Shown: positions 46,292-64,000, counted from the stretch's first letter. The stretch is DNA of 64,000 bases from a virus (IMGVR_UViG_3300042861_001913); one strand, 5' to 3'. The notes: generated from the letters alone by a model not told the origin. Program-made: numbers and translations.

Positions 46292-46295
46292 CAAC

Positions 46296-46906: not shown

Positions 46907-46918
46907 GTAAGAAAAAAA
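46907..46918 (+). repeat. iterated motif GTAAGAAAAAAA copy (intergenic)
   Basis: exact; 21 nt after the stop of 46296..46886. Confidence 0.9.
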
Positions 46919-47581: not shown

Positions 47582-49231
47582 ATGACTTCCCGCGAACAAT
47601 TAGAAAAAGAACTAGCTAACATAGAGAACAAGTTATATGAACTAGCGATACTAGATAATAAGGATGAACAGTATGAATTAGAATCACTACTAGAAGAACA
47701 AAGTTACGTTCAAGCATATCAATCTAGTTACAGTTTCCTAGCTCATAGTTGGCAGACATTCAATGGTGAAGTATTCCTACCAGCTAAACATCTACACGCA
47801 ATAGCCGAACATCTAGATGCAACATTAACTGGTGAAATAAAACGACTTATAATTAACGTACCACCTAGAACTGCTAAGTCAGCATTAGTAACTAAAGCAT
47901 TTCCAGCCTATTGTTGGATAAGGCAGCCTCATCTTAAATTCGCCAACGTTAGTTATGGTTATGGATTAGCAGAAGAAGGTAGTGTACATAGTCGTCAGAT
48001 AATGCAATCTGATTGGTATAAGCGAGGTATGGCTACAGTATGGCGCGATATGGGTGCTACACCATGGGAGTTCAGACGCGATAAGAATATGAAGAATGAC
48101 TATGAGAATAATGCTAATGGTCGTAGATTCGCCACATCATGTCCTGAAGGTATCTTCACTGGTATTGGTGCAGACACAATTATAATTGACGACCCTGTTA
48201 AAGCTAACGCTGCATATAGTAAGAATACACTTGATAAAGTTAATCAATGGGTCAGCAATACTCTGATGTCGCGTTTAAACAACCAATCAGAAGGTGTTAT
48301 CATCTTGGTTCAACAAAGGGTTAGTGAAATGGATATGACTGGTTTTTTCTTACAACAAGAAGGAGTTTGGGAACATCTATGTCTCCCAATGGAATATGAA
48401 GACACTCAGAGATACTGGACTCGCATTGGTTGGACTGATTGGCGCACTAATCAGAATGAATTACTTGAACCAATTCGATTTCCGCGAGATGTGGTTGAGA
48501 GGCTCAAGAAGGACGAGGAATGGAGCTATGCTAGTCAATATCAACAACAACCAGTTCCGCTCGGTGGTGGACTTATTAGGCGTGAATGGTGGCAGAATTG
48601 GTACATACTTCCAACTCAGTTTGATGCAACTTGCATGGCATTCGATTTATCTATGAACGATAAGGAAACTAGCGATAATACGTCACTTATAGTTATGGGA
48701 CGTAAGGATAACAAGTTCTACATTATTGACTTAGTGTATGGCAAAATGGATATACTTAAACAAGTAGAATCCATAATTGAGTTGTGTAATAAGTATCCGA
48801 TGATAAGAACTAGGTTAATTGAACAACGTGCAAATGGAGATGCTGTAATTGCATTACTTAAACGTACCATAACTGGACTTATACCACTCATAACTAAAGG
48901 TGATAAAGAACAACGTATCCTTAGTTGTGTGCCAGAAATTAATGCAGGTAACGTATTAGTTCCAGATGAGAATGTACATAGTTGGATTAAACCACTATTA
49001 CTAGAAGCTACTATGTTTCCACGTGGTAAGAATGATGATGCTATTGATAGTATGCAGATGGCACTTAATCATCTAGTTACGTCAAACATCGTTACTTATA
49101 TGCCACTTCAAGTTATTACAGATAGTCCAGGTAATACAACTCGTGCTGAAATAAGAGAACATATAATGGATAGTAGTTATGCTGTTACAGTTAATGTGAC
49201 TCGTAACTATATTAAAGGTTTATTTGAATAA
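47582..49231 (+). CDS. terL: terminase large subunit
   Basis: ATPase IINVPPRTAKSALVT and IIIDDP; nuclease half FDLSMNDKETSDNTSLIVMG...YIIDLVYGKM...GDKEQRI...FPRGKNDDAIDSM. Confidence 0.85.
   Translation: MTSREQLEKELANIENKLYELAILDNKDEQYELESLLEEQSYVQAYQSSYSFLAHSWQTFNGEVFLPAKHLHAIAEHLDATLTGEIKRLIINVPPRTAKSALVTKAFPAYCWIRQPHLKFANVSYGYGLAEEGSVHSRQIMQSDWYKRGMATVWRDMGATPWEFRRDKNMKNDYENNANGRRFATSCPEGIFTGIGADTIIIDDPVKANAAYSKNTLDKVNQWVSNTLMSRLNNQSEGVIILVQQRVSEMDMTGFFLQQEGVWEHLCLPMEYEDTQRYWTRIGWTDWRTNQNELLEPIRFPRDVVERLKKDEEWSYASQYQQQPVPLGGGLIRREWWQNWYILPTQFDATCMAFDLSMNDKETSDNTSLIVMGRKDNKFYIIDLVYGKMDILKQVESIIELCNKYPMIRTRLIEQRANGDAVIALLKRTITGLIPLITKGDKEQRILSCVPEINAGNVLVPDENVHSWIKPLLLEATMFPRGKNDDAIDSMQMALNHLVTSNIVTYMPLQVITDSPGNTTRAEIREHIMDSSYAVTVNVTRNYIKGLFE
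48343..48353 (-). repeat. iterated motif GTAAGAAAAAA copy
   Basis: plus strand TTTTTTCTTAC inside terL (GFFLQ, third phase). Confidence 0.9.
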
Positions 49232-50165: not shown

Positions 50166-50176
50166 GTAAGAAAAAA
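50166..50176 (+). repeat. iterated motif GTAAGAAAAAA copy (intergenic)
   Basis: exact; 14 nt upstream of ATG 50191, sense orientation. Confidence 0.9.
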
Positions 50177-50745: not shown

Positions 50746-51646
50746 TATAGTTAAAGCCTTTGATTTTAATAACGAATCAATTTATCGCCGCACTTCAGAT
50801 AACTATTGGAATGCAACTGCAATGTGCAAAGCAGGTGGTAAAAGAATAGATCACTTTTTCGAGAACAAATGGTCAAAGTCTTATATAGAACAGGTTTCCA
50901 CGATCACCGGAATTAAGGGTAACGAACTTGTTCAAACAATTAAAGGTGGTAATCCTTATGAACAAGGAACTTGGGTACATGAAATAGTTGCAATACGAAT
51001 AGCCCAATGGTTATCACCTGAATTTGCTGCTAAAGTTGACTTAACTCTATATCAACTAAAACAGCAGTATCAACAATCACATCAATTATTACTAGAACAA
51101 GAATCTGCTAATGTACACGGCATTCCAATTGCACCACGTAATGAAGTAGACTTAGCATTCCGCATTAAGAACTGGATTGATTTATGTACTGATGGTGGTA
51201 GATTCTACATTGAACATCCACTAATCAATACTATTAATGCAACAACTAAAACTAGAAGAGTTGACTTCGTTAAATCTAATGGACGTAATGTTATAGTATA
51301 TGAGTTAAAGTTAAATAAGATAACTACAAATGACATAGCTAAAACTATAGGAGATAAAGGTTATTATCAACTATGTGCTGATAAGTTCAATCGTCCCATT
51401 AAGTTTATATTCCTATCACCGTTAGGTATAACTAATGAAGCACAGTTACTACTAGATAGGATGAATGATGTGAGTTTCCTAACTACACAACAACTATGTC
51501 AGGAGTATTATGTTAAAGGTAAGAAAAATAAGTGGCGCAGTTCTGAATGGTATTTAGATGTGCAAGTTAAAGATGATAAGTTCTCACATCTATTCACAGA
51601 TGAGTTTATTAATGATGTTACAGTTAAGTTAACTAAGGTAAAGTAG
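50738..51646 (+). CDS. KilA-N domain fused to a PD-(D/E)XK-like nuclease domain
   Basis: YWNATAMCKAGGKRIDHFFENKW...GTWVHEIVAIRIAQWLSPEFA (KilA-N); C-terminal RRVDFVKSNGRNVIVYELKLNK (D...ExK). Confidence 0.6.
   Translation: MSNIVKAFDFNNESIYRRTSDNYWNATAMCKAGGKRIDHFFENKWSKSYIEQVSTITGIKGNELVQTIKGGNPYEQGTWVHEIVAIRIAQWLSPEFAAKVDLTLYQLKQQYQQSHQLLLEQESANVHGIPIAPRNEVDLAFRIKNWIDLCTDGGRFYIEHPLINTINATTKTRRVDFVKSNGRNVIVYELKLNKITTNDIAKTIGDKGYYQLCADKFNRPIKFIFLSPLGITNEAQLLLDRMNDVSFLTTQQLCQEYYVKGKKNKWRSSEWYLDVQVKDDKFSHLFTDEFINDVTVKLTKVK
51519..51528 (+). repeat. iterated 10-mer GTAAGAAAAA copy
   Basis: exact; sense in 50738..51646 (GKKN). Confidence 0.9.
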
Positions 51647-51650
51647 AGTT

Positions 51651-51920
51651 ATGAAACACACAGTATTAATAAGTTGTTTAAGTGGTGTTATTTATGAACA
51701 ACTTAAACCAGATACATCTAACTACATTACTTATAACTACGATAACGAATCTAAGTTATGGACAATTAAATTAACTTGGTATGTAGGTAATAAGTTAATG
51801 GGTTATAGATTAGCTATAACTGACTTTGATTTAGATACGATATATCAGAACTTAATTATTGAGAAGTATACAACTGAAGTTATCGCCGCATATAATAAGT
51901 CATTCGCTACGCCAACATGA
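51651..51920 (+). CDS. hypothetical protein (89 aa)
   Basis: ORF track. Confidence 0.5.
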   Translation: MKHTVLISCLSGVIYEQLKPDTSNYITYNYDNESKLWTIKLTWYVGNKLMGYRLAITDFDLDTIYQNLIIEKYTTEVIAAYNKSFATPT

Positions 51921-52144
51921 ATAACATTGAATTTATTAACTACGTTAACACTAACTTTGTAGACACATATAAAGCTCATCTACAACAGTATGTTCCTTAT
52001 CCTCATATAATGTTTAAAAGTATTGAACATAACGTGTTTACTAACATCCCAGTATATCCAGATCAAGTTATATCTGAGCAAGCTAAAGATGAGATATTAA
52101 ACTCTGTTAATAATTACTTCAGTAACTTAATTACAACTAACTAA
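51917..52144 (+). CDS. hypothetical protein (75 aa)
   Basis: ORF track. Confidence 0.5.
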   Translation: MNNIEFINYVNTNFVDTYKAHLQQYVPYPHIMFKSIEHNVFTNIPVYPDQVISEQAKDEILNSVNNYFSNLITTN

Positions 52145-52181
52145 GGATAACTAAATTAAGTTAAACTACATATAACACTAG

Positions 52182-52210
52182 AAGCCGCCACTAATCGCGG
52201 CTTATTTATT
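52182..52210 (+). terminator. terminator-like hairpin AAGCCGC/GCGGCTT followed by ATTTATT
   Basis: 7-bp stem 52182-88/52197-203, immediately before ATG 52211. Confidence 0.5.
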
Positions 52211-55200
52211 ATGAACATCAACAAGTACATTAAAGAACAAGATGAGTTAGTTACTGCATTTACAGATGGATTAACTAATAGTATAGGTAACTCATTATCG
52301 CGTAAACAAGATAACTTAAGTCTCATTATCAGTAATCAATTAAATAAGTTATGGAATGATAGTTGGAATCTCGGACGTACTCATGCAATAGATGAAACGC
52401 CGCCATCCCTTTTTTCTTACTCTGATAGCATTGCGGAATTTGCATCACCACTTGAGAAATTAAGAAATGAGATTGATGAAATTACTAAGGAAAAGGAAGG
52501 TTATCAATCTGAGTTAGATAGAATACGTCGTGATTATCAAGATAAAGAAGGTAATTATAGTGGTACTAAGATATTAAGATCAATTGATAAAAAAGGTACT
52601 TATAATGATGTAGATAAAGTTAGAGCTATTCAAGTTATACGTAATCGTGAAGATGAGTTAAATGCACTTATCGCAGCTAAGGATAACTTAATTAAAGATA
52701 AACAAGATAAGTTTTTTGAATTAACTGATCCTGCTAACATAGCTAAGTTAAATGAGTTATCTAAAGATACTAAAGATGTTACACCTGAAGTATTACCTCG
52801 TGTTAATAAAGCTGAAGTTAATCAACAATTAAGTAAAGCAGTTAGAGATAGAGATGCTTGGCGTAAATCATTTGTAGATGAGAATGGTAATTTAAACTTA
52901 GCTAAGTATAGAAGAGTTAAAGGTTATGACACTTCTGATAGTGATGCTGATGTATTAAAACAAATGAAGAGAGAAGAACTTGATTTAATTAATGAAGTTA
53001 AACGACATAATCAAACACTTAATGATATTAATGATAGAAGTACATCAACTAGAACTACATCTATTAAGGAACAAGCTTTAATTGATAAACAAAAACGTAG
53101 AATTGAACGTCAATTAAAGAAACAACAGAACTTACAAACAACTAAGTTAGATGCTAATAAGATACCTGCTAACATCAGAGATTCAGTTCAAGCAATTGAA
53201 CAACGTCGTCAAATTGAATCTACTAGAGGCGATGTACCATTACTTGAACAAACTGAGTTTGGTAAATCGTATTTAAATAGACGTATTAATACTATAGGTA
53301 ATGATCTGAACGAACGATATAAAGCGACATTACAACAGATACTTGTTGGTGAAAAAGAAACTAAAACTACTGGTTATTTAGCAGATAATAGCCCTGATAA
53401 AGACGTTACTTATTATAAACGTATTAGTGCAATGTTAACTAGAGAAGATGCTAAACAAATGGAGCAATACAATAAACAACTTGAGTTAATTAAAACTCGA
53501 TTAGATGATATCCCAACTAAATTAACTGCAACTAAAGATATGAATGTTTATGAGAGTGTAGCATTCCTTAAACAGAAGTATGATCCTGATGTTAAGTTAA
53601 CTATCACTGATAAGAAACTACTTAATGAGTTACCAGATAAAGCAGTTTATAAGATGCAGGATTTAAGAGCTTATCGTGACAAGTTACTTGAGAAAGTAAG
53701 AAAACTAAAGGATAATCAGGCTCGTACTAAACGTATTGCAATAACTGAAATGGGACACGCTTATAATTTAGGGCGACTTGATTACTACGTGAAACAAGGT
53801 ATTAAGTTTGTTAAGTGGAACAATAGTATTGAACATAAACGTGCTATGATTCCCGGCGATTATAATACTAGATATCGTAAAATATACAATAAATTATCTG
53901 AGTTAATTAATAGATCACCACAACTTGAGTCATTTAAGATGGATGGTATTGTATGTCCAATATGTCAGGAACGCGCTATCTATGATTATGGTTATGGTAA
54001 AGGAATAATTAAGATAGATGACTTGTTAAGTAATAGTCAAAGTCAACCACTACTTCACGCAAATTGCTCGTGTTTTCTTACCAGTGTAGAGGAATCTGAA
54101 ACTAAAGAACCATTTAATGTACCAATCTATGTATCATCATTACTTAATAATAATGTTGTTAAATGGGCAACTGCTGGTATATTAGGAACTGCTGCTATGT
54201 ATGCGGCATTTAAGAAGAGTAATGTAACTCCACTTAACATACCTGATATTATTAGAAGTAAACCAGCAGTAGTTACAACTAAAGCATTAAGTCAAGCATT
54301 ACTAGATGATATTATTGATGTTCCATTAGTTCCATTACAAATACCTGAACGTGTACCAACTACAATTAACATTGATAGAGCAAATAAAGTATTAGAAGAT
54401 GTAGTTAATTGGCACACTAATACTATTGATGAGTCTATTACTAAAGCTATTGAAATAGATAATAGATATGAATTAGTTAATCCATTTATGACAGCAATTA
54501 CTGAATCTTCAGTAGATGACATTACAACTAGAGTTAAAAAATATAACTCTATAACTAAAGCTACTTTAACTAAAAATGATCTTAATCAATTTAAAGAAGA
54601 TGTAGATAAAATTCAACATTACATTAATGAAATAGAAGATGCTAATACTAAGATTTATTCATCTATTCAATCAATGAAGTTAGCTAGAAAAGCAATTATA
54701 GATGAAGGGTTGAATAAGCTAAGTGATGAATTAATTCCACCTGGATTTACTCCAGAACAAGTTATTATTAGTAATCCTATTATCCAACGATTAGATAATC
54801 AGATAATACAATCTGAGAATACATTAAGGAATGCAATTTCATTAAAGTTAGGTGAAACTAGTCATTATTCAACACTAAAAAGAATCAGAAATGATTTATT
54901 AGATAATGAGTTATTTAAGTTGGAGTACATTAAACGTAAACGTGGTGTTCTATTAAGATTACAAGATAAATTAATTGGTAAATTTGATAAAGTTAAAAAA
55001 GTTTTTGTTGGTGGACAAGTTAATCCTAGAGTATTAGAACGTGATTTAGAAGAGTTACAGAATACTATACTTTCTAATTACATGAATGTAAATAATGAAC
55101 AATTTGAATCATATGTTAGACAATTAGATAATATTGAGTTAGCAATAGATGGACAACTTGAGTTAATTAAGAATAAGTTAGGTTTGACTAGTTTAGATGC

Positions 55201-55327
55201 ACGTAATTACACAGGTAATGATATGGCAGTATTAACTAGCGAGTTTATTAGTGATTATAAGAATGGTTTAATGCGAAGTAAACTTAGAGCTATGGGATTA
55301 AGAAATCTATTAATAGATGTAAAATAG
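52211..55327 (+). CDS. MuF-like (SPP1 gp7 family) minor head protein with long N- and C-terminal extensions (1038 aa)
   Basis: central RTKRIAITEMGHAYNLGRLDYY...KFVKWN...GIVCPICQERA...PLLHANCSCFLTSV matches the MuF core ending in the HxNCRC-like motif; coiled-coil N-terminal region; TM-like VVKWATAGILGTAAMYAAF after the core. Confidence 0.75.
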   Translation: MNINKYIKEQDELVTAFTDGLTNSIGNSLSRKQDNLSLIISNQLNKLWNDSWNLGRTHAIDETPPSLFSYSDSIAEFASPLEKLRNEIDEITKEKEGYQSELDRIRRDYQDKEGNYSGTKILRSIDKKGTYNDVDKVRAIQVIRNREDELNALIAAKDNLIKDKQDKFFELTDPANIAKLNELSKDTKDVTPEVLPRVNKAEVNQQLSKAVRDRDAWRKSFVDENGNLNLAKYRRVKGYDTSDSDADVLKQMKREELDLINEVKRHNQTLNDINDRSTSTRTTSIKEQALIDKQKRRIERQLKKQQNLQTTKLDANKIPANIRDSVQAIEQRRQIESTRGDVPLLEQTEFGKSYLNRRINTIGNDLNERYKATLQQILVGEKETKTTGYLADNSPDKDVTYYKRISAMLTREDAKQMEQYNKQLELIKTRLDDIPTKLTATKDMNVYESVAFLKQKYDPDVKLTITDKKLLNELPDKAVYKMQDLRAYRDKLLEKVRKLKDNQARTKRIAITEMGHAYNLGRLDYYVKQGIKFVKWNNSIEHKRAMIPGDYNTRYRKIYNKLSELINRSPQLESFKMDGIVCPICQERAIYDYGYGKGIIKIDDLLSNSQSQPLLHANCSCFLTSVEESETKEPFNVPIYVSSLLNNNVVKWATAGILGTAAMYAAFKKSNVTPLNIPDIIRSKPAVVTTKALSQALLDDIIDVPLVPLQIPERVPTTINIDRANKVLEDVVNWHTNTIDESITKAIEIDNRYELVNPFMTAITESSVDDITTRVKKYNSITKATLTKNDLNQFKEDVDKIQHYINEIEDANTKIYSSIQSMKLARKAIIDEGLNKLSDELIPPGFTPEQVIISNPIIQRLDNQIIQSENTLRNAISLKLGETSHYSTLKRIRNDLLDNELFKLEYIKRKRGVLLRLQDKLIGKFDKVKKVFVGGQVNPRVLERDLEELQNTILSNYMNVNNEQFESYVRQLDNIELAIDGQLELIKNKLGLTSLDARNYTGNDMAVLTSEFISDYKNGLMRSKLRAMGLRNLLIDVK
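52410..52420 (-). repeat. iterated motif GTAAGAAAAAA copy
   Basis: plus strand TTTTTTCTTAC in the MuF-like gene (LFSY). Confidence 0.9.
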
Positions 55328-55352
55328 ATATGATACCTTAATCAATAAACTT

Positions 55353-55793
55353 ATGTACTTAATGGCAGATTTTGCGCGACGTGTTGGAAGTAAAGATAAG
55401 AAGAAACGTAAAAACGCTAACTTATTTACATCAACACTAATAGGTGGTGGTTTAATGTATGGTGGTTATAAATTAGATGAGCCTGGAATTAGATTACCTG
55501 ATAAAAAACCTAAACTTAATAGAACTACTAGTGGTGATCCTGGTTTAGATTTGGCATTTGATTTTAAAAACGAATTAATTAAACGAAATAAACCTGAAGT
55601 TAATAGACGTTATTTTAAATTATTTGGTGGTAAATACAAACAGTTAGTTGATAATACTTTATATAGTCCTAATCCTGGAAGAAGACAACTTGCAGCTATT
55701 GGAACATTAGTTGGTGCTGCTTATTTAGGAGCTAACGCAATTAAAGGTGGTAGTTATTTAATTAATAAAGCGCGTAATAAAGGTAATAAATAG
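55353..55793 (+). CDS. tag-family protein P3 (FARRVGSKDKKKRK tag, two glycine-zipper segments)
   Basis: MYLMADFARRVGSKDKKKRKN...LIGGGLMYGG ... AAIGTLVGAAYLGANAIKGG. Confidence 0.65.
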   Translation: MYLMADFARRVGSKDKKKRKNANLFTSTLIGGGLMYGGYKLDEPGIRLPDKKPKLNRTTSGDPGLDLAFDFKNELIKRNKPEVNRRYFKLFGGKYKQLVDNTLYSPNPGRRQLAAIGTLVGAAYLGANAIKGGSYLINKARNKGNK

Positions 55794-55794
55794 T

Positions 55795-56748
55795 ATGTTT
55801 CTAATGTCAGATACCGCGAACTTCAAGCGCACTAAAGTTAAATCATTTATTAGGAAAGGTAAAGTAGTTAGAAGTTACGATAGATCAATCAGAGATAGAA
55901 TACGTGATGTTGCTATAGGTGCAACTGGAACTGCATTATTAGGTGGTGCATATCTATTAGGTAAACGTAATGGTGCAAGATCATTAGATGAAGTTAAGTC
56001 ATTAATTAAGAACATTAAACCTGAAGTTACAGTTAATGTACCAACTCCAATCGTTAATGTAACTAATACTCCAGGTGTAGTTAGAGAGATAGTTAAAGAA
56101 GCATCTAGTAAGTCAAGTAAAGTTAATGAAGTAATTAACAATGCAATTAAATTAGATATAGTTAGAGTTAGATTACCATCTAAGGTTTATAACCTAAGTG
56201 AATCAACTATTAATAAAACTGCTAGTGAAGCTGCTAAGTTGACCGACGTTAAATTAGAGAGAACTATTAGTCTTATTAGTCGTAGATTACAGAAGTATAA
56301 CGTTAGTAATAATGAGTTAGTTAAACTAGATAGTTTGTTACTTAGTTTAAATAGATTTAAAACAGGTAAGTTTAATAAAGAAAGTGAACGTGAGTATTTA
56401 CGTAAACAGATAATTGAATATAGAGATTACTTTAAGTTACCTAAAGTAGATGTAAATGAACTTAATGTAGAATCAGTTGTAGATAGGGATTATGCAACTA
56501 AGTTAAAGAAGGTTATTACTAGAGATAAATCAATATTAGACATCTATCAAAGTGAGTTAACTAAACGTCGTGAAGTTGCAACTAATATAACTACTCCAAC
56601 TGATGCTGACATTGATAGACTTAGTGGTATGTTAGATGATTTTAGTAGTTCACGCAAACTAACATTATTTAATGACACTAAATCGCGCCGTTCCTTTTTT
56701 CTTACTGATACAGATGTTCCTAAATTAAGTAAACTATTAAATAGATAA
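55795..56748 (+). CDS. tag-family protein P4 (KVKSFIRKGKVVRSYDR tag + glycine zipper; 317 aa)
   Basis: MFLMSDTANFKRTKVKSFIRKGKVVRSYDRS...VAIGATGTALLGGAYLLG. Confidence 0.65.
   Translation: MFLMSDTANFKRTKVKSFIRKGKVVRSYDRSIRDRIRDVAIGATGTALLGGAYLLGKRNGARSLDEVKSLIKNIKPEVTVNVPTPIVNVTNTPGVVREIVKEASSKSSKVNEVINNAIKLDIVRVRLPSKVYNLSESTINKTASEAAKLTDVKLERTISLISRRLQKYNVSNNELVKLDSLLLSLNRFKTGKFNKESEREYLRKQIIEYRDYFKLPKVDVNELNVESVVDRDYATKLKKVITRDKSILDIYQSELTKRREVATNITTPTDADIDRLSGMLDDFSSSRKLTLFNDTKSRRSFFLTDTDVPKLSKLLNR
56695..56705 (-). repeat. iterated motif GTAAGAAAAAA copy
   Basis: plus strand TTTTTTCTTAC in 55795..56748 (FFLT). Confidence 0.9.
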
Positions 56749-56755
56749 TACAACT

Positions 56756-58546
56756 ATGATTATTGCACAATTCAAAGACTCAGATAACTCCGATAAGAAG
56801 AAATCTCAAGTAGGTAAGAAAATAGGTGGAGTTGCACTATTAGGTGGATCAGCAGCTATAGGAACTCAATCTATTAGAAGTGGTTTACCTAGAGCGTTAG
56901 GTGTACGTTTAGAACAACATGGTACTAGTCGTAAAGCTGCTGCAAATATTATTAAAGAGGGTTATTTAGATCCTGGTTATGGTGGAACTATGGAAGGTGT
57001 TACTTCTTCAATGAAGTTACCTAAAGAGTTCCTAGAACGTAGTAAAGGTTATACATTTCTAAGTGGTAAGAATCCAGATCATGTATTTTGGGATAAACGA
57101 AATGGATTAAGTTCTATAGGTGATGTAATAACTAGGAAAATACAGGTACTTGGTTATCGTGGTTCTAAAGCAGGTAAGTTAACTGAAAAAGATGTTGAAC
57201 GTGGTTCTAAATTTATTGGTGCAAGAGTAAATAGTATATTGAAACCATTTAAGAAGCAATTAGATGGAATGACTCCTGAACAAATGTTAGCTGAGATGAA
57301 GAAACAATCAGTAATAAGTGTTGATGTTAAGGCATTATATGATAGTTATGTAGCAGATCCAGAGAAACTTAAACGTGACTTAAAATCAATGAGACGTGAA
57401 ATTGAGAAGTTAGTTAAGAATACTCAAGATGTAGCTAAACGTGGATATAAAGATCCTAGTAGAATTAAATCAATTAGAAAAACTCAAGTTAAGTTTAATA
57501 AGTTATTTAATGATTATAAGGATGAATTTAAAGAATATCAAAAAGGTAGAAAAGATTTTAATACTTATGGTAGAGGTTTTGGTAAACGAAAAGGTAAAAC
57601 AAATTATAATAGTTTACTTAATAATTTTTTAGAACAAAAAGTTGATAGTGGTGATAAGAAAGCTGCTAGATTATTGAAGTTGAAAGATGGATTACAAAAT
57701 CAATTAAAAGCTCAAGAATTTAGTAAGAATCTAGGTCTTAGTGCTGGTTGGACTCAGAAGTTATTACAATCTCCATTATTAGGTGCTGCTGGAGTTGGTA
57801 AAACTGTTTATCTACCAGGAACAGATGAATACTTCAATGATACAAATAGATTTAAATACGATATAGATGATCCATTTGGTAATCCACTTAAATATAAAGA
57901 TTCATTCACATCAGAGAAAGGTGGATTTGGTGGTAATGCACTTAAAACTAAAGAGAAAGTTAGAGCATTTGGTAATAGATTTAGTGCAAGTAAATATCTA
58001 TTAGAAAAAGAAGGTAATGGTAACTTAATTAAAGGTGCATCTAAATTAATGGGTGCTAATAAAGGAAGAGTATTAGCTGGACTTGGAATACTTGGAGTTG
58101 GTGGAACTGCTGCTGGATTACTTGGAGCTAAAGGTATTCAACTATTAAAAGGTAAAGATGATAAGAAGAAAGTAGTAGTACAACCTAAAGTTATAGCAGT
58201 AGTTAAGAAACCTAAACAAGAGATAAGTAAGAAAAATGAGATACTTAAAGCATTACCTAGTTCTGTATTAACTAACGCAGCAATGGGAGGTTATCTTGGT
58301 TTAGCTGTAGGAACTGCATTAGGTATTAAGAATGGATTAGTTAAAGGTGTAGCATTAGGAGCATTAGCTGGTGGAGCATCTGGAATACAAGCTGGTTTAA
58401 ATAAATATAAAGATCGTAAAGAAACATTAGAAAACTATAAGTTACCAAGTCGTAAGATTAAAGTTAAATCATATGCTCGTAAAGGTAAACTAGTGCAAAC
58501 ATTTGAGAGACTTAATCCCTTCTATAATAAAGATAAACGTAAGTAA
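56756..58546 (+). CDS. tag-family protein P5 (596 aa; glycine zippers at both ends; tag KVKSYARKGKLVQTFER at the C-terminus)
   Basis: N-terminal KKIGGVALLGGSAAIG; C-terminal AGLGILGVGGTAAGLLGAKG, GGYLGLAVGTALG, GALAGGASG; tag encoded at 58460-58510. Confidence 0.65.
   Translation: MIIAQFKDSDNSDKKKSQVGKKIGGVALLGGSAAIGTQSIRSGLPRALGVRLEQHGTSRKAAANIIKEGYLDPGYGGTMEGVTSSMKLPKEFLERSKGYTFLSGKNPDHVFWDKRNGLSSIGDVITRKIQVLGYRGSKAGKLTEKDVERGSKFIGARVNSILKPFKKQLDGMTPEQMLAEMKKQSVISVDVKALYDSYVADPEKLKRDLKSMRREIEKLVKNTQDVAKRGYKDPSRIKSIRKTQVKFNKLFNDYKDEFKEYQKGRKDFNTYGRGFGKRKGKTNYNSLLNNFLEQKVDSGDKKAARLLKLKDGLQNQLKAQEFSKNLGLSAGWTQKLLQSPLLGAAGVGKTVYLPGTDEYFNDTNRFKYDIDDPFGNPLKYKDSFTSEKGGFGGNALKTKEKVRAFGNRFSASKYLLEKEGNGNLIKGASKLMGANKGRVLAGLGILGVGGTAAGLLGAKGIQLLKGKDDKKKVVVQPKVIAVVKKPKQEISKKNEILKALPSSVLTNAAMGGYLGLAVGTALGIKNGLVKGVALGALAGGASGIQAGLNKYKDRKETLENYKLPSRKIKVKSYARKGKLVQTFERLNPFYNKDKRK
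58227..58236 (+). repeat. iterated 10-mer GTAAGAAAAA copy
   Basis: exact; sense in 56756..58546 (SKKN). Confidence 0.9.
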
Positions 58547-58552
58547 ACTATT

Positions 58553-59530
58553 ATGGTAAAACAATCTAAAGTTAAGTCTTATGTTCGCAAAGGTAAAACT
58601 GTTAAATCTTATAACAGATCAATTAAAAATATCGTATTTGATGTAGGACGTGTTGCAGGGCTTGGAATTGGAGGACTTGCTGCAATTAAGTATGGTAAAC
58701 GTATACCTCTAAGTTGGGGTGATAAATTTACTCTGGGTGGTATAGCAGGTGCTTACTTAGGATCATTACCTTCTAACTTAATTAATAAGAATAACAAGAA
58801 AGCTAAACAACAATTAAAGAATATAGGATTAACTGTTGGTGGAATAGGTGGATTAGGATTAGCTACATTAGGTGGAATTAAAGGATATAAGTTTATTAAA
58901 GCCCGTAATACTAAATCATTAGTGTTATTTAATCCAAATGAATCATATCGTAATACTGTAGCTGCATTTAATATTAAAGCTAGAGAACAAGCTAAAACAG
59001 CCCCTAAATCGTTAGATGACATGAAAAGATATTATCAGAAGACATATTCTAATAAAGAATTAGTAGATGCTGAAGCTACTATTTTTTCTTACAATCTTAA
59101 ATCTAGCACTAGAGGTATACTTAAACCTCTTACTGGTGATGATGTATTAAATCTATATGATGAAACATTAACTCCTATAGCTAAACGAATAGTTATTGAT
59201 AGTGAGCGTGTAGCAGCAGTTGAAGGTAAAGATGGATTAAGAGATACTATTTATAAAGCAGTTACTAAGGATTTAGATATACCATTAAGTAAAGCAGAAC
59301 GTAGATATTTTGCTGGTGTTGCTAAAATGAATGATCCGGCAGTTAGAGAAGCTGAACGTAAGGTACTTAAAAAATCATTAGATGCTTATGCTAAAGCTAA
59401 TAATATTGACACAACTAGAGTTAATGGTAGTGTAGACTTAAATAAGATAATTAAGTCACTTAAAGAACGTGGTTTTACTGAATTAGATATTAAACAGATG
59501 ATAGACAAACACAATAACATTAAACTCTAA
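58553..59530 (+). CDS. tag-family protein P6 (KVKSYVRKGKTVKSYNR tag + glycine zippers; 325 aa)
   Basis: MVKQSKVKSYVRKGKTVKSYNRS...VAGLGIGGLAAIKYG...GGIGGLGLATLGGIKG. Confidence 0.65.
   Translation: MVKQSKVKSYVRKGKTVKSYNRSIKNIVFDVGRVAGLGIGGLAAIKYGKRIPLSWGDKFTLGGIAGAYLGSLPSNLINKNNKKAKQQLKNIGLTVGGIGGLGLATLGGIKGYKFIKARNTKSLVLFNPNESYRNTVAAFNIKAREQAKTAPKSLDDMKRYYQKTYSNKELVDAEATIFSYNLKSSTRGILKPLTGDDVLNLYDETLTPIAKRIVIDSERVAAVEGKDGLRDTIYKAVTKDLDIPLSKAERRYFAGVAKMNDPAVREAERKVLKKSLDAYAKANNIDTTRVNGSVDLNKIIKSLKERGFTELDIKQMIDKHNNIKL
59082..59092 (-). repeat. iterated motif GTAAGAAAAAA copy
   Basis: plus strand TTTTTTCTTAC in 58553..59530 (IFSY). Confidence 0.9.
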
Positions 59531-59537
59531 ATAAATT

Positions 59538-59915
59538 ATGTACATTTTATCTGACTATTCATTATCAACATTTGCAAGACGATTAGGTTCTAAAGATAAG
59601 AAGAAGAGAGAACGTCCTAGTATTAGACGTGGTATGTTAACTGGTGCTAAATGGGGTGCTGGGTTAGGTGTTGGTTTAACGGGTTTAACTATCGCTTCGG
59701 CATTAGCTCGTAAAGATGGTAGACAAGCTATGAGAGCAGCATTAAAAGCACAAGGTCGTAATCCTAGTCTTAGAAAAAATGCAGGTATGTTAGCTGGAGG
59801 TGCAGGATTAATTGCTGGAGTTAATGCACTAACTGGCGGTATTCAAGGTGGACTTATTGGAGGTGGAGTTAATGCGATTAGAAAATACCAATACGATAGG
59901 AATAACTCTAAATAA
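59538..59915 (+). CDS. tag-family protein P7 (FARRLGSKDKKKRER tag, Gly-rich; 125 aa)
   Basis: MYILSDYSLSTFARRLGSKDKKKRER...GAGLGVGLTGLTIA...GGAGLIAGVNALTGGIQGGLIGGG. Confidence 0.65.
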   Translation: MYILSDYSLSTFARRLGSKDKKKRERPSIRRGMLTGAKWGAGLGVGLTGLTIASALARKDGRQAMRAALKAQGRNPSLRKNAGMLAGGAGLIAGVNALTGGIQGGLIGGGVNAIRKYQYDRNNSK

Positions 59916-60646
59916 TGAAACAAGTTAAAGTTAAACAATCAGTTCGTAAAGGTAAGTTAGTACGTGGTTATAATCGTGTACTAACTAAAGTAACGGATAA
60001 GTTATTTAAACGAGATAAGGATGGTAAGAAGAAGTTAACCAATCTTAGTAAAGGATTAATAGGCGCGACTTCTATAGCAGGTTTATTAACTGCATTTAAA
60101 TATCGTCGCAACATAGCTCAGTTAAGTGAGAAGATTGTAAATAAGGTTAGTCCAACTGTTAAGCGCGTATTTAATAAAACTGCTAAAACTATAAGTCAAC
60201 CTATCACTAATACAACTGGTGATATTATGGCAGCTAGTGTAACTGGTGGAGCTATGACTAGAGACGCTAGACGTAAATACATACGCGAATTAGATAACTT
60301 ACCAAGTGAAGCAGTTAATATACAACCGTTTACTAAACGTGAAGATAGTTTAATTACTAGACGTATTAAACGTAATGATGCAACACTTAATAAACGAGTT
60401 AATAATGCACGTGGTAAACTAACTTCAGTTAACTATAATTCAGATAATGATCTATATTTAGCTATCAAGACTAATAAAGACTTTAGTTATAAGGGAGCTA
60501 GTAATATTGAAGATAGACGTGCAACTCGTAAAGCATTAGCTAAGAAACTTAAACAACAGTTAGGAGTTAATCCAGGAACTCCAAATCCAGCAACTCCAGT
60601 TAAACGTAAACGTGGTAGACCTAGAAAAGATAGGAGTAATCAATGA
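59915..60646 (+). CDS. tag-family protein P8 with C-terminal AT-hook (243 aa)
   Basis: MKQVKVKQSVRKGKLVRGYNR...GLIGATSIAGLL; C-terminal PVKRKRGRPRKDR (RGRP AT-hook core). Confidence 0.65.
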   Translation: MKQVKVKQSVRKGKLVRGYNRVLTKVTDKLFKRDKDGKKKLTNLSKGLIGATSIAGLLTAFKYRRNIAQLSEKIVNKVSPTVKRVFNKTAKTISQPITNTTGDIMAASVTGGAMTRDARRKYIRELDNLPSEAVNIQPFTKREDSLITRRIKRNDATLNKRVNNARGKLTSVNYNSDNDLYLAIKTNKDFSYKGASNIEDRRATRKALAKKLKQQLGVNPGTPNPATPVKRKRGRPRKDRSNQ

Positions 60647-61728
60647 AGAAACGAGTTAAAGTTAAATCATTTACACGTAAAGGTAGAATAGTTAAAGCTT
60701 ATGATAGATTGCAAGATGATAAGAAGTTACAACAATATAAGAATATAATTAAAGGTGTTAGTTTAATTGGTGGTAGTTTTGCTGCAATTAAAAATGCAGA
60801 TAAGTTATATAAGTTATTTAGGTTAGCTAAAATACAATCTAAAGTAAACAAGATAAATATTAAGCCGTTAAATGTAGCTAATGTTAAATCACCAATAGAG
60901 AAGTTAAATATACTAAACACCTTTAAAATATTTAAAGGTGAATCAACTAACACTATTAAACTAGTAACTAAAGATGGAGTTAATTACATCTATAAAGAAA
61001 GTAGAGATAACTTAGATTCTAATATATTAAGTAATTTAAGTATAGGAAGTTATCCTCATGGTAATGAACAAGCTACAGAAGCACTAATATCATCTATTGG
61101 AAACAAACTTAAAATACCTGTACAAGAAACTGAAATTATAGCAGCGAATCAGATATTTGATGGTAAAAAAGCTGGTTTACCTGGAAGTCTACATAAGATA
61201 GTTGACGGTGTACCAGCATCTGAATTATTTAAAGACATGAATTTTGTTGTAGCTAATCCAGTATCTAAATCTAAATACTCTAAGGTAATTGATAATATAT
61301 TACTAAATAAAGATACTGCTAAAATCGGCGCACTTGATATATTTGTTGGTAATGCTGATAGAAATGCTGGTAACTTATTTTATAACATTAGTAATGGAGC
61401 ATTCACAGCAATAGATAACGGTAGTGCATATACATTACCGTTTGATTATGATTCATTAACTAAGATAATTAAAAGTAAATCGCGCAAACTAAATGAAACT
61501 AAACGACGTAATCTAAATCAATTAAGAGATACATTAACTGAGTTACATAACAATTACACGCCAGAACAACTTGTTAATGAATACGATAGAAATTTCCTTA
61601 AAGCTCTAGATGGTGTAGATGATGATGTATTTAAACAAGCATTAAAATCGCGCGATTCTAGAATTAAGAATATCTATTATAATCACGCCAAGTCTAAAGA
61701 GTTTCTAGATTATTTAAATACTATTTAG
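60643..61728 (+). CDS. tag-family protein P9 with a PI3/PI4-kinase-like (atypical protein kinase) catalytic region
   Basis: MKKRVKVKSFTRKGRIVKAYDR...; C-terminal half GALDIFVGNADRNAGNLFYN...FTAIDNGSA resembles the GDRHxxN catalytic loop plus IDxG metal-binding motif. Confidence 0.55.
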   Translation: MKKRVKVKSFTRKGRIVKAYDRLQDDKKLQQYKNIIKGVSLIGGSFAAIKNADKLYKLFRLAKIQSKVNKINIKPLNVANVKSPIEKLNILNTFKIFKGESTNTIKLVTKDGVNYIYKESRDNLDSNILSNLSIGSYPHGNEQATEALISSIGNKLKIPVQETEIIAANQIFDGKKAGLPGSLHKIVDGVPASELFKDMNFVVANPVSKSKYSKVIDNILLNKDTAKIGALDIFVGNADRNAGNLFYNISNGAFTAIDNGSAYTLPFDYDSLTKIIKSKSRKLNETKRRNLNQLRDTLTELHNNYTPEQLVNEYDRNFLKALDGVDDDVFKQALKSRDSRIKNIYYNHAKSKEFLDYLNTI

Positions 61729-62785
61729 ATCGCCGCGATTCATCAATAGCCATTTTGAGTCTATTTTTAGCCTTATTAAGTTCTTGTACAGCAGAATCCA
61801 TCGCTTGTTTTTTCTTACTTTCTGGAATTTTCGTATTAAATCGAAGTTGTTTTAATTTACGTTGTCTATCTTTAATGTGAGCAATTTCATCAGCTACATT
61901 AATTGGAGCTTTATTAACCTTCCTTATTTGTAATGGTTCATAACCAATAAACTGTTTTACTTGGTTAACAATATTCTTATCATCAACATACTCCGATATA
62001 GTGTGTTGATTTTTTCCTTTAATCCATTTAATGTCAGGGTAAGGAAAATACTTTGATGTTAAATCCCAATCATCTTTACTTCCAAAACTAAGTGTATTAC
62101 CGGGGTTAACTTTATTTATGCCTAAGTAAGTACCAGCATAGTTAATTTGTTTAACTTTACTAACGTTACCTCCCATTTCTTTAAAGATATTAATAGCTTC
62201 AGAATTAATAAAACTACCAGAACTAAATCCATGTAAAACTAAATCTTTATCGGGATATGTTTTAGCGTAAGAATACATATCAGCCGCTAACTCTCTAGCT
62301 GTTGGATTATAACCATCTTTAATAAATGGTTTAGCCCATGCAATAGATCCATTCTTTAATAACTCTAATTTATTCTTATAGTTTCTACCTAGATACTTCA
62401 CATTACTATTAGATGTGTTAACTGGTATTATGTGTTCTTGCGTTTTATCAAATAAGTTTCGTACTTTATGTGCAAAGCTAATTGATTGACGTGCTTCTAG
62501 ATTACTTGCATTAAATCCACCTGTTGTAAAGTGAACTCGTTTTACTTTATCTGATAGTTTAACAGGTGTTATATTATTAGCTAATTTAAATGCTTCTTTA
62601 GCTGATGTTTTATATCCATTAATATAACGTCGTTTTAGTAATAGGTAACTAGCAGCAGTTAGTCCAAGTGTACTTGCAGTAACTATAGTTGCTTTAACTA
62701 ATGCACTGTCTTGTTTACGTTGGTACTGTTTAACTAGTTTACCTTTCCTTACATACGATTTAACTTTAACGTCTTGTTTAACCAT
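61721..62785 (-). CDS. tag-family protein P10 with an alpha/beta-hydrolase (lipase/esterase-like) domain, leftward
   Basis: MVKQDVKVKSYVRKGKLVKQYQRK...ASTLGLTAASYLL; nucleophile elbow LVLHGFSSGSF (GxSxG). Confidence 0.6.
   Translation of the reverse strand: MVKQDVKVKSYVRKGKLVKQYQRKQDSALVKATIVTASTLGLTAASYLLLKRRYINGYKTSAKEAFKLANNITPVKLSDKVKRVHFTTGGFNASNLEARQSISFAHKVRNLFDKTQEHIIPVNTSNSNVKYLGRNYKNKLELLKNGSIAWAKPFIKDGYNPTARELAADMYSYAKTYPDKDLVLHGFSSGSFINSEAINIFKEMGGNVSKVKQINYAGTYLGINKVNPGNTLSFGSKDDWDLTSKYFPYPDIKWIKGKNQHTISEYVDDKNIVNQVKQFIGYEPLQIRKVNKAPINVADEIAHIKDRQRKLKQLRFNTKIPESKKKQAMDSAVQELNKAKNRLKMAIDESRRSK
61808..61818 (-). repeat. iterated motif GTAAGAAAAAA copy
   Basis: plus strand TTTTTTCTTAC; sense in 61721..62785 (SKKK). 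Confidence 0.9.
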
Positions 62786-62997
62786 TAGATGTCACTTAGA
62801 AAATAGATTATTTTTTTATTTAATGCTCGACTAAAGTTGCCTAGTCTATCTGCTGCTACAGAATACTTACCTGTCTCTATCTTACTTAATACACTTCTCT
62901 GCATAAATAGTTCCTTAGCTAACTGTTCCTGAGTTAAATTAGCTTCTTGTCTAGCTCGTTTAATTTTGTTACCGATTAACTTACGTTTATCTATCAT
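62785..62997 (-). CDS. XRE-family HTH transcriptional regulator (70 aa)
   Basis: IKRARQEANLTQEQLAKELFMQRSVLSKIETGK; stop overlaps the start of 61721..62785 (TAATG). Confidence 0.7.
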   Translation of the reverse strand: MIDKRKLIGNKIKRARQEANLTQEQLAKELFMQRSVLSKIETGKYSVAADRLGNFSRALNKKIIYFLSDI

Positions 62998-63089
62998 GTG
63001 CTTATTAAGAACAATAACCCACTATGTCTATTATATTCACTATTATGAAACATATAGAGCTAGTAGGAGTTAAATCACAATAAACAAGT

Positions 63090-64000
63090 ATGAATAAATT
63101 AGCTTATTTTTCAGCTTCTAATTTAGAAACAATAAGTGAGTCACCTAATAAGGTAATTAAGAAAGGATTAGTCCTAATTGAAGGTACTCATGTTGACTCT
63201 AAGAAGAGAACACATACATTTAGTCCAGCTAGAATACGTGAGATAGTTAGTAACTCTAATGCGTTATTTGCTAAGACTCGCATTCCAGTATTGATGGATC
63301 ATAAGAAGGAGCAATCTAGTGTTATTGGAGATGTAGAATCTCAATTTCAATGCACTACTATTAATGAAGATAATTTTCCTGGTGCTGATGATAAGGGATT
63401 AACTGGTAAGTTAGGTATCTTTGTTAATCAAATCGCAATTAAAAGTGGTGAAGCAATACGTCAGTTAAATGAAGGATTATTAAACACACTTAGTCCTGGC
63501 ATTGATGTAGTAAGTAATGCAATACGTGAAATTAGTGCAACACCTAATCCCGCCATTGCTAATCTAAGTCTATTTAAACGTGCCGAATTTGAATCAGATG
63601 CACTTACATTTGACGACTTAGAGAACAGTGATGATATGTTAGATAAGATTCGTAATCAATACGAAGATTTAACTAATAAGTTATGGGAACTAACTGAAAC
63701 TATTCAGACTATTGATGAACAAGCACTTAACGGTCAGAGTCGTGAAGAAGTACAGTATCAAGCTATTAATGATTTCGCCACTCGTTTTCTTACGTTGATT
63801 GGATCTGGTGAGGAAGAACAAGATCCTATGATGCAGGAAGCTAATGGTGGATCTTATCCGAACCAAGTGCAAGGTTATCAAGCTCAAGGTCAACAACAGA
63901 ATTGGGGTATGCCTCCTAATGATCCTAACGCTCGTTATGCTAGTGGATTACCTATTGCAGCATTTAGTATGGCTGAGATGGAAGCAGTTAATCGTGCTGA
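63090..64000 (+). CDS. prohead protease (HK97/S78-like) fused to a scaffold-like region, 3' end outside the window
   Basis: hand-translated open frame from ATG 63090 to the window end (not in the track because no stop is reached); IPVLMDHKKEQSSVIGDV resembles the protease His motif; later coiled-coil and Q/G/N-rich region. Confidence 0.55.
   Translation, partial: MNKLAYFSASNLETISESPNKVIKKGLVLIEGTHVDSKKRTHTFSPARIREIVSNSNALFAKTRIPVLMDHKKEQSSVIGDVESQFQCTTINEDNFPGADDKGLTGKLGIFVNQIAIKSGEAIRQLNEGLLNTLSPGIDVVSNAIREISATPNPAIANLSLFKRAEFESDALTFDDLENSDDMLDKIRNQYEDLTNKLWELTETIQTIDEQALNGQSREEVQYQAINDFATRFLTLIGSGEEEQDPMMQEANGGSYPNQVQGYQAQGQQQNWGMPPNDPNARYASGLPIAAFSMAEMEAVNRA

Follow-up and report, generated by a model that had tools for sequence, protein, structure and literature searches.

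Three tagged genes in the head-gene block of an uncultured phage: a predicted kinase, a predicted serine hydrolase and a third cargo behind one portable leader

We analysed three neighbouring genes, encoding the proteins P8, P9 and P10, in a 64,000-nt stretch of DNA (IMGVR_UViG_3300042861_001913; hereafter the window, from whose first letter all coordinates are counted) of an uncultured, tailed phage of ~122 kb, exact copies of P8–P10 being present on metagenomic contigs of 121–125 kb. Each of the three proteins opens with the same leader, consisting of a basic tag and a Gly/Ala-rich helix, and we conclude that P8, P9 and P10 are cassettes of a strain-variable late-protein array in which this leader is joined to a C-terminal cargo. 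The cargo of P9 is a predicted kinase and that of P10 a predicted serine hydrolase, and, delivery set aside, we hold these assignments of fold and enzyme class with high confidence. The whole model of leader-bearing cassettes, in which the virion also delivers the tagged proteins, is evenly balanced in our analysis. Related stretches and contigs are designated by L numbers (L001–L019 etc.), and homologs from protein searches by P numbers above P10 (P0061 etc.). The three genes and their leaders are as follows.

59915–60646, plus strand: P8, 243 amino acids (aa); tag, Gly/Ala helix, conserved body (approximately residues 145–217) and variable basic tail (from the open reading frame (ORF) list, Pfam and the ortholog alignment)
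60643–61728, plus strand: P9, 361 aa; tag, weakly hydrophobic helix and protein-kinase-like domain (approximately residues 90–361)
61721–62785, minus strand: P10, 354 aa; tag, hydrophobic helix, minimal alpha/beta hydrolase (approximately residues 80–285) and C-terminal long helices (residues 297–353)
59924–59980, plus strand: P8 tag VKVKQSVRKGKLVRGYNRV, residues 4–22
60655–60711, plus strand: P9 tag VKVKSFTRKGRIVKAYDRL, residues 5–23
62714–62770, minus strand: P10 tag VKVKSYVRKGKLVKQYQRK, residues 6–24
62636–62698, minus strand: P10 Gly/Ala/Thr-rich hydrophobic helix, approximately residues 30–50, with a best 19-residue Kyte-Doolittle mean of 1.52

In the ORF list, P10 is convergent with P9 and overlaps it by 8 nt. 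A first-pass annotation had described P8, P9 and P10 as three consecutive genes of one tag family and had picked out short motifs in each; a motif position scan located all of these motifs, and each gene carries an N-terminal tag, P10 doing so on the minus strand.

The tag follows the pattern VKVK(S/Q)x(x)RKG(K/R)xVxxYxR, common to P8, P9 and P10 near the N terminus, and the leader as a whole is a ~19-residue basic beta-hairpin (VKVKSYxRKGKxVxxYxR) together with a Gly/Ala-rich, moderately hydrophobic helix. We found six clear tags in the window, which are N-terminal in P8, P9, P10 and the products of the genes starting at 55795 and 58553, and C-terminal in the product of the gene starting at 56756; a weak seventh tag lies behind a hydrophobic helix in the protein encoded at 46269–46886. 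Every tag is adjoined, after or before, by a Gly/Ala-rich helix with a best 19-residue Kyte-Doolittle mean between 0.87 and 1.78, the values for P8 (1.09) and P9 (0.87) falling below the usual transmembrane threshold (~1.6) and that for P10 (1.52) being borderline. The tags are alike as peptides, yet their nucleotide identity between copies is 58–75%, with different Arg and Ser codons; this use of other synonymous codons indicates selection at the protein level and rules out a DNA-level repeat or gene conversion as the cause of their likeness. Further, when P10 was aligned with its homologs (alignment A1, described below), the first ~50 residues (tag and helix) were nearly identical and the hydrolase domains ~35% identical, which argues for a constant leader with diverging cargo. 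The strict tag pattern occurred in 22 IMG/VR stretches only, and the tagged ORFs of these stretches belong to the same protein families, which suggests that the leader is lineage-specific. There are ~12–14 tagged families in total, and domains were recognisable in the ADP-ribosyltransferase (ART), kinase and hydrolase cargos only; a Pfam search with ten further tagged or neighbouring cargos gave a weak ART match and nothing else. The leader is portable, in that one peptide is shared by unrelated cargos.

We conclude that P9 is very probably a protein-kinase-like enzyme of the PI3K/PI4K-HipA-CtkA type, predicted from its sequence and structural model to be active. The residues that bear on this assignment are listed below.

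60994–60996, plus strand: P9 Lys-118, putative ATP-binding lysine, invariant (58 of 58)
61348–61380, plus strand: P9 catalytic loop GNADRNAGNLF, residues 236–246
61408–61428, plus strand: P9 AIDNGSA, residues 256–262, in which Asp-258 is the equivalent of the DFG/IDxG metal-binding Asp

P9 matched the Pfam families PI3_PI4_kinase (PF00454; 22.9 bits, E 9.4e-5, residues 223–261; gathering cut-off 27.1) and HipA_2 (PF20613; 15.2 bits, cut-off 27), and its PHROG matches, phrog_3162 (E 1.9e-8) and phrog_11186, are both families without assigned function. An indexed search returned three homologs, and an exhaustive HMMER search of 1.84 billion representative proteins returned 208 at E<=1e-3, of which 58 were aligned (alignment A3) to count residue conservation. 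Within A3, PI3_PI4_kinase was matched by 30 of the 58 relatives and HipA_2 by 23 (E<=1e-3; best values 1.7e-8 and 3.4e-8, respectively). Because P9 itself falls below both Pfam cut-offs and its relatives match, we regard it as a divergent relative, rather than a curated member, of these families. The catalytic positions Lys-118 (58/58), Asp-232 (56/58), Asn-237 (55/58), Asp-239 (46/58), Arg-240 (55/58), Asn-244 (53/58) and Asp-258 (58/58) are conserved in the family, and all of them are present in P9, which has Asn at the position of the 'DRH' His, a residue that is His in about half of the family. The AlphaFold2 model of P9, built with the family alignment, had a predicted local distance difference test (pLDDT) score of 83.2 and a predicted TM-score (pTM) of 0.81, with low confidence in the tag and helix region. 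A Foldseek search of the Protein Data Bank (PDB) with this model gave 54 matches at E<=1e-3, and the 50 listed were all kinases or kinase-fold phosphotransferases: the best were Helicobacter pylori CtkA and human VPS34 (both E 6.5e-6), and others among those listed were COQ8A, Bud32, aminoglycoside and sugar kinases, PI3K gamma/delta, HipA and PI4K. Global root-mean-square deviations were high, and we therefore claim the fold class alone (a bilobal kinase fold). Neither phmmer nor the family profile found anything significant among PDB sequences (a weak TOR2 match at the catalytic loop had an E value of 0.34), which places P9 on a divergent branch, and tblastn of P9 against phages gave no match. 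P9 thus resembles the CtkA, HipA and PI3K-PI4K atypical kinases (PF00454, PF20613, PKinase clan) in its bilobal fold, its Lys, its D-R-x-x-x-N and its IDxG Asp; it differs from them in its sub-threshold scores, in the Asn for His after DR and in having an N-terminal phage leader and no HipB-type partner. The likeness to PI3/PI4-type and HipA-like atypical kinases proposed in the first-pass annotation is borne out for the fold, the catalytic loop and the metal-binding Asp by Pfam, by the conservation in A3 and by the Foldseek comparison led by CtkA and VPS34.

Phosphoinositides are absent from most bacteria, and the protein kinases CtkA and HipA act on Ser/Thr; a protein substrate is therefore likelier for P9. 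Kinase domains of the P9 type also occur at the C-terminal ends of giant proteins of 1000–2200 aa (P0121, P0078, P0074, P0204 and P0184), of which P0121 consists of Phage_portal_3, InPase and kinase, P0078 of several alpha/beta-hydrolase (lipase) modules and HipA_2, and P0074 of LRAT and kinase. We also note that standalone versions of ~300 aa are found in bacterial chromosomes (L042) and that TIGR03843 (SCO1664 family) was matched by 13 of the 58 family members. The window has a second kinase-annotated gene, unrelated to P9, at 37240–38868 on the minus strand; its 542-aa product matched phrog_18508 'kinase' over two stretches (612 bits, E 2e-184), and it lies in a G+C bump at 36–40 kb (2-kb bins of 37–41% compared with ~31% elsewhere).

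P10 is predicted, from conserved residues and the fold of its model, to be a minimal serine hydrolase resembling cutinase and LipA, with a Ser-Asp-His triad. Fifteen homologs were found, and residue conservation was determined from the 14 homologs in A1.

62216–62230, minus strand: P10 nucleophile elbow Gly-186-Phe-Ser-188-Ser-Gly-190 (HGFSSGS at residues 185–191), invariant in 14 homologs
62069–62071, minus strand: P10 Asp-239, putative triad acid, invariant
62003–62005, minus strand: P10 His-261, putative triad base, at least 90% conserved

In A1, Gly-186, Ser-188, Gly-190 and Asp-239 are invariant and His-261 is conserved in at least 90%, so that P10 has both the elbow and a complete triad, in the order Ser-188, Asp-239, His-261 that is usual for alpha/beta hydrolases. 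The AlphaFold2 model had a pLDDT of 81.1 and gave 56 Foldseek matches in the PDB at E<=1e-3, with TM-scores up to 0.67 (normalised to target length); these matches included Fusarium cutinase, Bacillus LipA, the rumen lipase Lip_vut1 and a cinnamoyl esterase. At the level of sequence, Pfam Cutinase scored 13.6 bits, below the curated-family threshold of 25.9, members of the P10 family matched Lipase_3, Cutinase, DUF676 and PGAP1 weakly, and the family profile found marginal esterase and lipase matches only among PDB sequences. A PHROGs search of P10 gave nothing, and tblastn of its leader (71 aa) against phages gave no match. P10 therefore shares with cutinase and Bacillus subtilis LipA the GxSxG elbow, the Ser-Asp-His order and a small alpha/beta fold; unlike them, it scores below the Cutinase threshold, and its identity to solved enzymes is 12–15%. 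The GxSxG elbow from which P10 had earlier been called a hydrolase is accordingly part of a conserved triad (A1) in a cutinase/lipase fold, and the comparison with lipase and esterase families recovers cutinases, LipA and Lip_vut1 by structure and weak Pfam matches in the family.

The sole homologs of P10 in a cultured phage are ORF047 and the N terminus of ORF048 of the Aphanizomenon phage vB_AphaS-CL131 (hereafter CL131), which were found by tblastn (E 4e-14) and by Foldseek against BFVD (E 1e-15 to 3e-13) and which keep the elbow and the Asp of P10. Liquid chromatography-tandem mass spectrometry of CsCl-purified CL131 virions detected ORF047 with 14 unique peptides, ORF048 with 105 and ORF045 with 33 (PMC6293099, Table S5). 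The layout of ORF047 and ORF048 is a short basic leader with the Cys motif CKxGKxCGxxCIPKxxxC, then a Gly/Ala hydrophobic helix, then the hydrolase; the Cys motif and helix occur in six copies, one each in ORF045 and ORF047 and four in ORF048, at the following sites.

40279, 41788, 42756, 44583, 45573 and 46575 (L017, positions of record MG209611): Cys motifs of CL131

ORF048 (1811 aa) contains at least three alpha/beta-hydrolase modules and looks, from its sequence, like four concatenated leader-helix-cargo modules. Further, P0061, a tag-bearing homolog of P10, aligns with ORF047 through helix and hydrolase, the leader alone being different. ORF047 and ORF048 are thus true sequence homologs of P10 with the same leader-helix-hydrolase layout; unlike P10, they have a Cys motif and no basic hairpin in the leader, and modules are joined in an 1811-aa protein beside a tape-measure gene.

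The comparison of orthologs shows that P8 carries a conserved domain as its cargo, to which an AT-hook-like tail is an optional, lineage-specific appendage.

60602–60634, plus strand: P8 AT-hook-like tail KRKRGRPRKDR, residues 230–240, followed by SNQ and the stop

The stretch KRKRGRPRK (residues 230–238) has the R-G-R-P core and the basic flanks of an AT-hook, and RGRP occurs once in the 19,169 aa of the window ORFs compared with 0.067 expected, which makes the string unusual. The last tail codons (gat agg agt) double as the ribosome-binding site of P9; we considered that the tail could be a purine-run or ribosome-binding-site artefact and rejected this, as its codons are cgt, aaa, ggt, aga and cct and the last three alone overlap the P9 Shine-Dalgarno sequence. 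Compared with the HMGA-type AT-hook (PF02178), P8 shares the R-G-R-P core between Lys/Arg residues at 230–240; it differs in having a single copy, in scoring 12.2 bits against a Pfam threshold of 17.4, and in that the hook is lost, shortened or mutated in most orthologs. RGRP is kept in eight of 42 P8 ortholog clusters (72–98% identity) and absent from 34, most clusters ending in GVNPGKTS and others stopping at KRKR or reading RSRP, RRRP or LIP. A P8 homolog of 36% identity has no hook, and the body NARG...NY..DDDLY...R..RK.LA.KL is conserved. L015 retains the hook although it lacks P9, and the hook therefore does not depend on P9; a PHROGs search of P8 gave nothing. Of the AT-hook read into P8 by the first-pass annotation, the core motif therefore stands, and the reading is weakened by its single, sub-threshold copy and its absence from 34 of the 42 clusters and from the 36%-identical homolog; we consider the kinase and hydrolase calls solid and the AT-hook marginal.

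The same annotation had speculated that P8 reads an iterated 10-mer, GTAAGAAAAAA, and an AT-hook DNA-binding protein with this role was weighed as an alternative view of P8. The 10-mer is truly over-represented, with 48 occurrences (<=1 mismatch) in the window compared with 4.3 expected, on both strands, within and between genes and across the whole window.

615–625, 6293–6303, 46907–46917, 50166–50176 and 61808–61818: example sites of GTAAGAAAAAA

The fit of KRKRGRPRK to the AT-hook core and the uniqueness of RGRP among the window ORFs would agree with such a reader. Single AT-hooks, however, bind the A/T minor groove weakly and have no specificity for a 10-mer, and the hook of P8 is single, sub-threshold and missing from most clusters and from the distant homolog. 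Moreover, L018 (a 20.7-kb locus in which P8 ends in GVNPGKTS, with no hook) has 14 occurrences compared with 2.07 expected, and the hook-bearing L007 (~21 kb) has 14 compared with 2.42 expected. Since the enrichment is equal with and without the hook, a link between P8 and the 10-mer is not supported, and we consider such a role for P8 highly improbable.

The tagged genes lie in the following setting.

47582–49231: large terminase
46269–46886, plus strand: 205-aa protein (p205) with the reversed order of helix, then tag GVRSYLRNGKLVRQ
52182–52203, plus strand: terminator-like G+C-rich hairpin of 7 pairs (5 G-C), directly upstream of the 1038-aa gene
52211–55327, plus strand: 1038-aa protein with a MuF/minor-head-protein match at residues 496–632; first gene of a tightly packed run that ends with P9
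55795–56748, plus strand: tagged protein of 317 aa (p317) with a MFLMSD motif, tag and helix
56756–58546, plus strand: Gly-zipper protein of 596 aa (p596), tag at the C terminus
58553–59530, plus strand: tagged protein of 325 aa (p325) with three Gly-zipper helices
59538–59915, plus strand: Gly-zipper protein of 125 aa (p125) with a different basic leader (MYILSD...ARRLGSKDKKKRERP)
62785–62997, minus strand: XRE-type helix-turn-helix (HTH) gene, 70 aa (Pfam HTH_3, E 2e-12), first gene of the minus-strand cassette operon, with a stop that overlaps the start of P10

The plus-strand genes from the MuF-like gene to P9 are closely packed, with overlaps or short gaps, and a terminator scan found no strong terminator-like hairpin inside the plus-strand run 52211–61728; the strong hairpin at 52182–52203 marks the start of a transcription unit that extends to P9. 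Scanning 51500–64000 for promoters and terminators was uninformative (38 promoter-like sites compared with 67 in shuffles). Beyond the HTH gene lies a gene for a protein with a prohead-protease-like N terminus (phrog_976, E 1.8e-6) and, five genes past it, the major head protein (phrog_29, E 2.4e-23). With the MuF-like gene before it and the protease-like and head genes after it, the tagged array is located inside a head-morphogenesis block. Neither megablast of 52000–64000 against GenBank phages nor a tblastn search of phages with the 1038-aa protein found a match, and no tRNA genes were found in the window, whose G+C content is 29–41% and mostly 30–34%. In L018 (501–4541), the homolog of the 1038-aa protein has 1346 aa and a weak Intein_splicing match. 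A 661-aa protein encoded at 34269–36254 on the minus strand gave a full-length phrog_1735 match (674 bits), and its gene is among the few in the window with close relatives in catalogued phages.

Comparison of related stretches revealed that the array turns over. P9 is absent from L015 and from L018/L019; P10 is replaced by paralogs of 268–282 aa in some relatives; an additional tagged gene of 364 aa lies beyond the HTH gene in L002, L006, L008 and L012; and extra or alternative cassettes are found in L001, L002, L008 and L012, other slots varying in length and content. On a sister contig (L007:472-1314, minus strand), a 280-aa protein consists of MFLISD..., a hydrophobic helix, the tag GVKSYLRNGKLVRQYNR and an ART domain (Pfam ADPrib_exo_Tox, E 2.7e-9; PHROG Alt-like ART). 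This variant, helix-first order of the leader is the one found at 46269–46886 of the window, where the same leader carries another cargo. We note that the cargo of the helix-first leader varies by strain, being the ART in some and a 286-aa form in L011 and L013. A second N-terminal motif, M(F/Y)(L/I)(L/M/I)SD...F(K/A)(K/R), opens p317 (55795–55830), p205 (46293–46340), p125 (59538–59600), the ART protein (L007:472-1314) and a 524-aa protein (L037:7184-8758), and it is also internal in a 353-aa fusion of L015 (11544–12605); it could serve as a further leader element or mark a junction for cleavage or recombination.

The HTH gene is translationally coupled to P10 and, with equivalents in L001–L019, is conserved in all relatives examined, including those that lack P9 and the distant L016. 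Its place is between the plus-strand array and the protease-like gene, where it always heads a minus-strand tagged cassette, which may be P10, the 364-aa protein, a hydrolase of 268–278 aa or, in L016, a 297-aa protein. An XRE-type HTH gene ~1 kb from P9, the HipA_2 similarity of P9 and its relatives and the standalone relatives in bacterial chromosomes raise the question of whether P9 and the HTH gene form a HipBA-like toxin-antitoxin module or an abortive-infection or defence moron. The arrangement of such a module, in which the HTH gene lies upstream of the kinase, shares its orientation and co-occurs with it, is not found at P9: the HTH gene is coupled to P10, is convergent with P9 and is kept in relatives without P9, and P9 itself has the phage-lineage leader and ends the plus-strand run opened by the MuF-like gene. 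We rejected the module on gene order and co-occurrence and think there is very little chance that P9 acts in this way.

We consider virion delivery of the tagged proteins plausible, at about an even chance, because the tagged genes lie in the head block, because a variant of the leader is found on an Alt-like ART in sister strains, because P9-type kinase domains are, in other phages, fused to a portal protein and InPase (P0121), because the CL131 homologs of P10 were detected in purified virions and because the array turns over as a cassette system. In the mechanism that we propose, the leader would load proteins of the P8, P9 and P10 type into the capsid or attach them to the portal or the DNA, and the proteins would exit with the genome, after which the hydrophobic helix would place them at the host membrane in the manner of T7-type ejection proteins. 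P9 would most likely phosphorylate host proteins on Ser/Thr as part of early takeover or shut-off (compare HipA acting on GltX, and T7 gp0.7), and the most likely task of P10, at penetration or later, would be hydrolysis of an ester bond in lipids of the envelope or in lipid-linked polymers. The swapping of cargo behind a constant leader would provide the phage with a polymorphic set of effectors. Several observations weigh against delivery. The virion location is drawn from genomic context and a distant homolog; no protease cleavage site was found after the leader; P10 is on the opposite strand behind its own HTH regulator and may thus not be a late structural gene; and P9 and P10 each score below the Pfam gathering thresholds. 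Further, BLASTP of the protease-like and capsid proteins against the head proteins of CL131 revealed no homology, so that the analogy with CL131 rests on the hydrolase module and the architecture, and a shared head module was dropped from consideration. The combination of basic N terminus and hydrophobic helix also looks like a signal anchor, as would be expected if these were membrane proteins synthesised by the infected cell.

According to this last view, the tagged proteins are made in the infected cell, are not packaged and are held at the host inner membrane by tag and helix, with possible roles, late in infection, in envelope remodelling, lysis support (P10 being a LysB-like lipolytic helper), superinfection exclusion or membrane-localised host control. 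A strongly basic N terminus precedes a hydrophobic helix in every member, the 19-residue Kyte-Doolittle means reach 1.5–1.8 for P10, p325, p596 and p205, the place of P10 in its own minus-strand operon behind an HTH regulator fits this view better than a late structural role, and mycobacteriophage Lysin B is among the weak viral fold matches of P10 (rank 25). The helices of P8 and P9, however, are well under the transmembrane threshold, and the positive-inside rule would put the cargo outside, where a kinase or ART would be without ATP or NAD. In addition, the array lies within the head-gene block rather than a lysis cassette, and CL131 homologs of the same architecture are in virions. Overall, we judge it rather unlikely that the proteins are membrane-anchored and act in the infected cell without being packaged.

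The tagged proteins could also be virion parts that, as ejectosome or tape-measure-like proteins, serve genome delivery only, the Gly-zipper helices forming a trans-envelope conduit, P10 breaching the envelope locally and the fold of P9 being structural or regulatory for ejection and not that of an effector of host takeover. Many Gly-zipper helices are present in the neighbours p596, p325 and p125, the CL131 homologs adjoin a tape-measure gene and one of them carries an annotation of similarity to a tape measure domain protein, a BFVD match of P10 is named 'Tape measure domain protein', and T7 gp16 joins transmembrane helices to a peptidoglycan hydrolase (PMC8954989). Against this, the full catalytic set of P9 argues for enzymatic use, P9 and the ART are dispensable between strains, unlike essential ejectosome parts, and the substrates of a kinase and an ART are cytoplasmic. 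We regard a role in genome delivery only as improbable.

Taken to its full extent, the delivery model would make the basic hairpin and Gly/Ala helix a portable loading and ejection leader found in this phage lineage alone and equivalent to the Cys-knuckle leader of CL131, and the array a 'split polyvalent protein' system in which a kinase, lipases, an ART and about ten further cargos are encoded in separate small genes, directed to the particle by one peptide, exchanged between strains in the manner of polymorphic toxins and injected with the DNA. We put this forward tentatively, as possible and at somewhat less than an even chance; if it is true, P9 is a virion-delivered HipA/PI3K-like kinase. 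Phage proteins delivered with the DNA act before phage gene expression and decide whether the infection survives host defences. Apart from T4 Alt and the internal proteins, P1 Dar, the virion RNA polymerase of N4 and polyvalent proteins, for which packaging is predicted, few examples have been described to our knowledge. A recognisable leader, if it has the proposed function, would allow delivered effectors to be found by sequence in metagenomes, could serve as a means of packing foreign proteins into phage particles and would direct attention to new activities of early takeover, here those of a HipA/PI3K-like kinase and of a lipase-like hydrolase, with searchable host targets. Delivery aside, two 'hypothetical' families have been assigned folds and catalytic residues and are linked to proteins that experiments have detected in the virions of a cultured cyanophage.

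The folds of P9 and P10 are new divergent members of known superfamilies. In phage T4, the capsid targeting sequence (CTS) is a short N-terminal targeting peptide common to different cargos; unlike the CTS, with which it has no sequence similarity, the leader described here includes a hydrophobic helix. T4 Alt is the classic example of an ART that is packaged and injected (PMC5512222), and in sister strains it is the helix-first form of the window's leader that carries an Alt-like ART. By close gene packing, the tagged array is encoded within, or co-transcribed with, head-morphogenesis genes, and it resembles T4 Alt, the T4 internal proteins and P1 Dar in including enzymes encoded with head genes, delivery with the DNA being only proposed here. 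Packaging and injection have been predicted for polyvalent proteins (Iyer et al. 2017, PMC5512222), and these and MuF-fused toxins have the same set of domains (kinase, ART, hydrolases, InPase, portal/MuF) and a cassette-like variability; kinases of the P9 type occur in portal-InPase-kinase and lipase-kinase giants, but the P9 family is not established as the kinase clade of that study, and the domains here are in separate small genes with their own leaders rather than in one fused polypeptide. In known ejection proteins, which vary greatly, predicted transmembrane helices are found together with enzymatic domains; examples are the T7 proteins gp14, gp15 and gp16, internal virion proteins encoded in the head module, with predicted transmembrane helices and, in gp16, an enzymatic domain (PMC8954989). 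The tagged proteins have no homology to the T7 set, which is essential and constant in number, whereas the cassettes vary by strain. Overall, we conclude that the systems nearest to this one are T4 Alt and the internal proteins, P1 Dar, MuF-fused toxins and polyvalent proteins, and that it departs from them in its organisation as many small genes with one lineage-specific leader.

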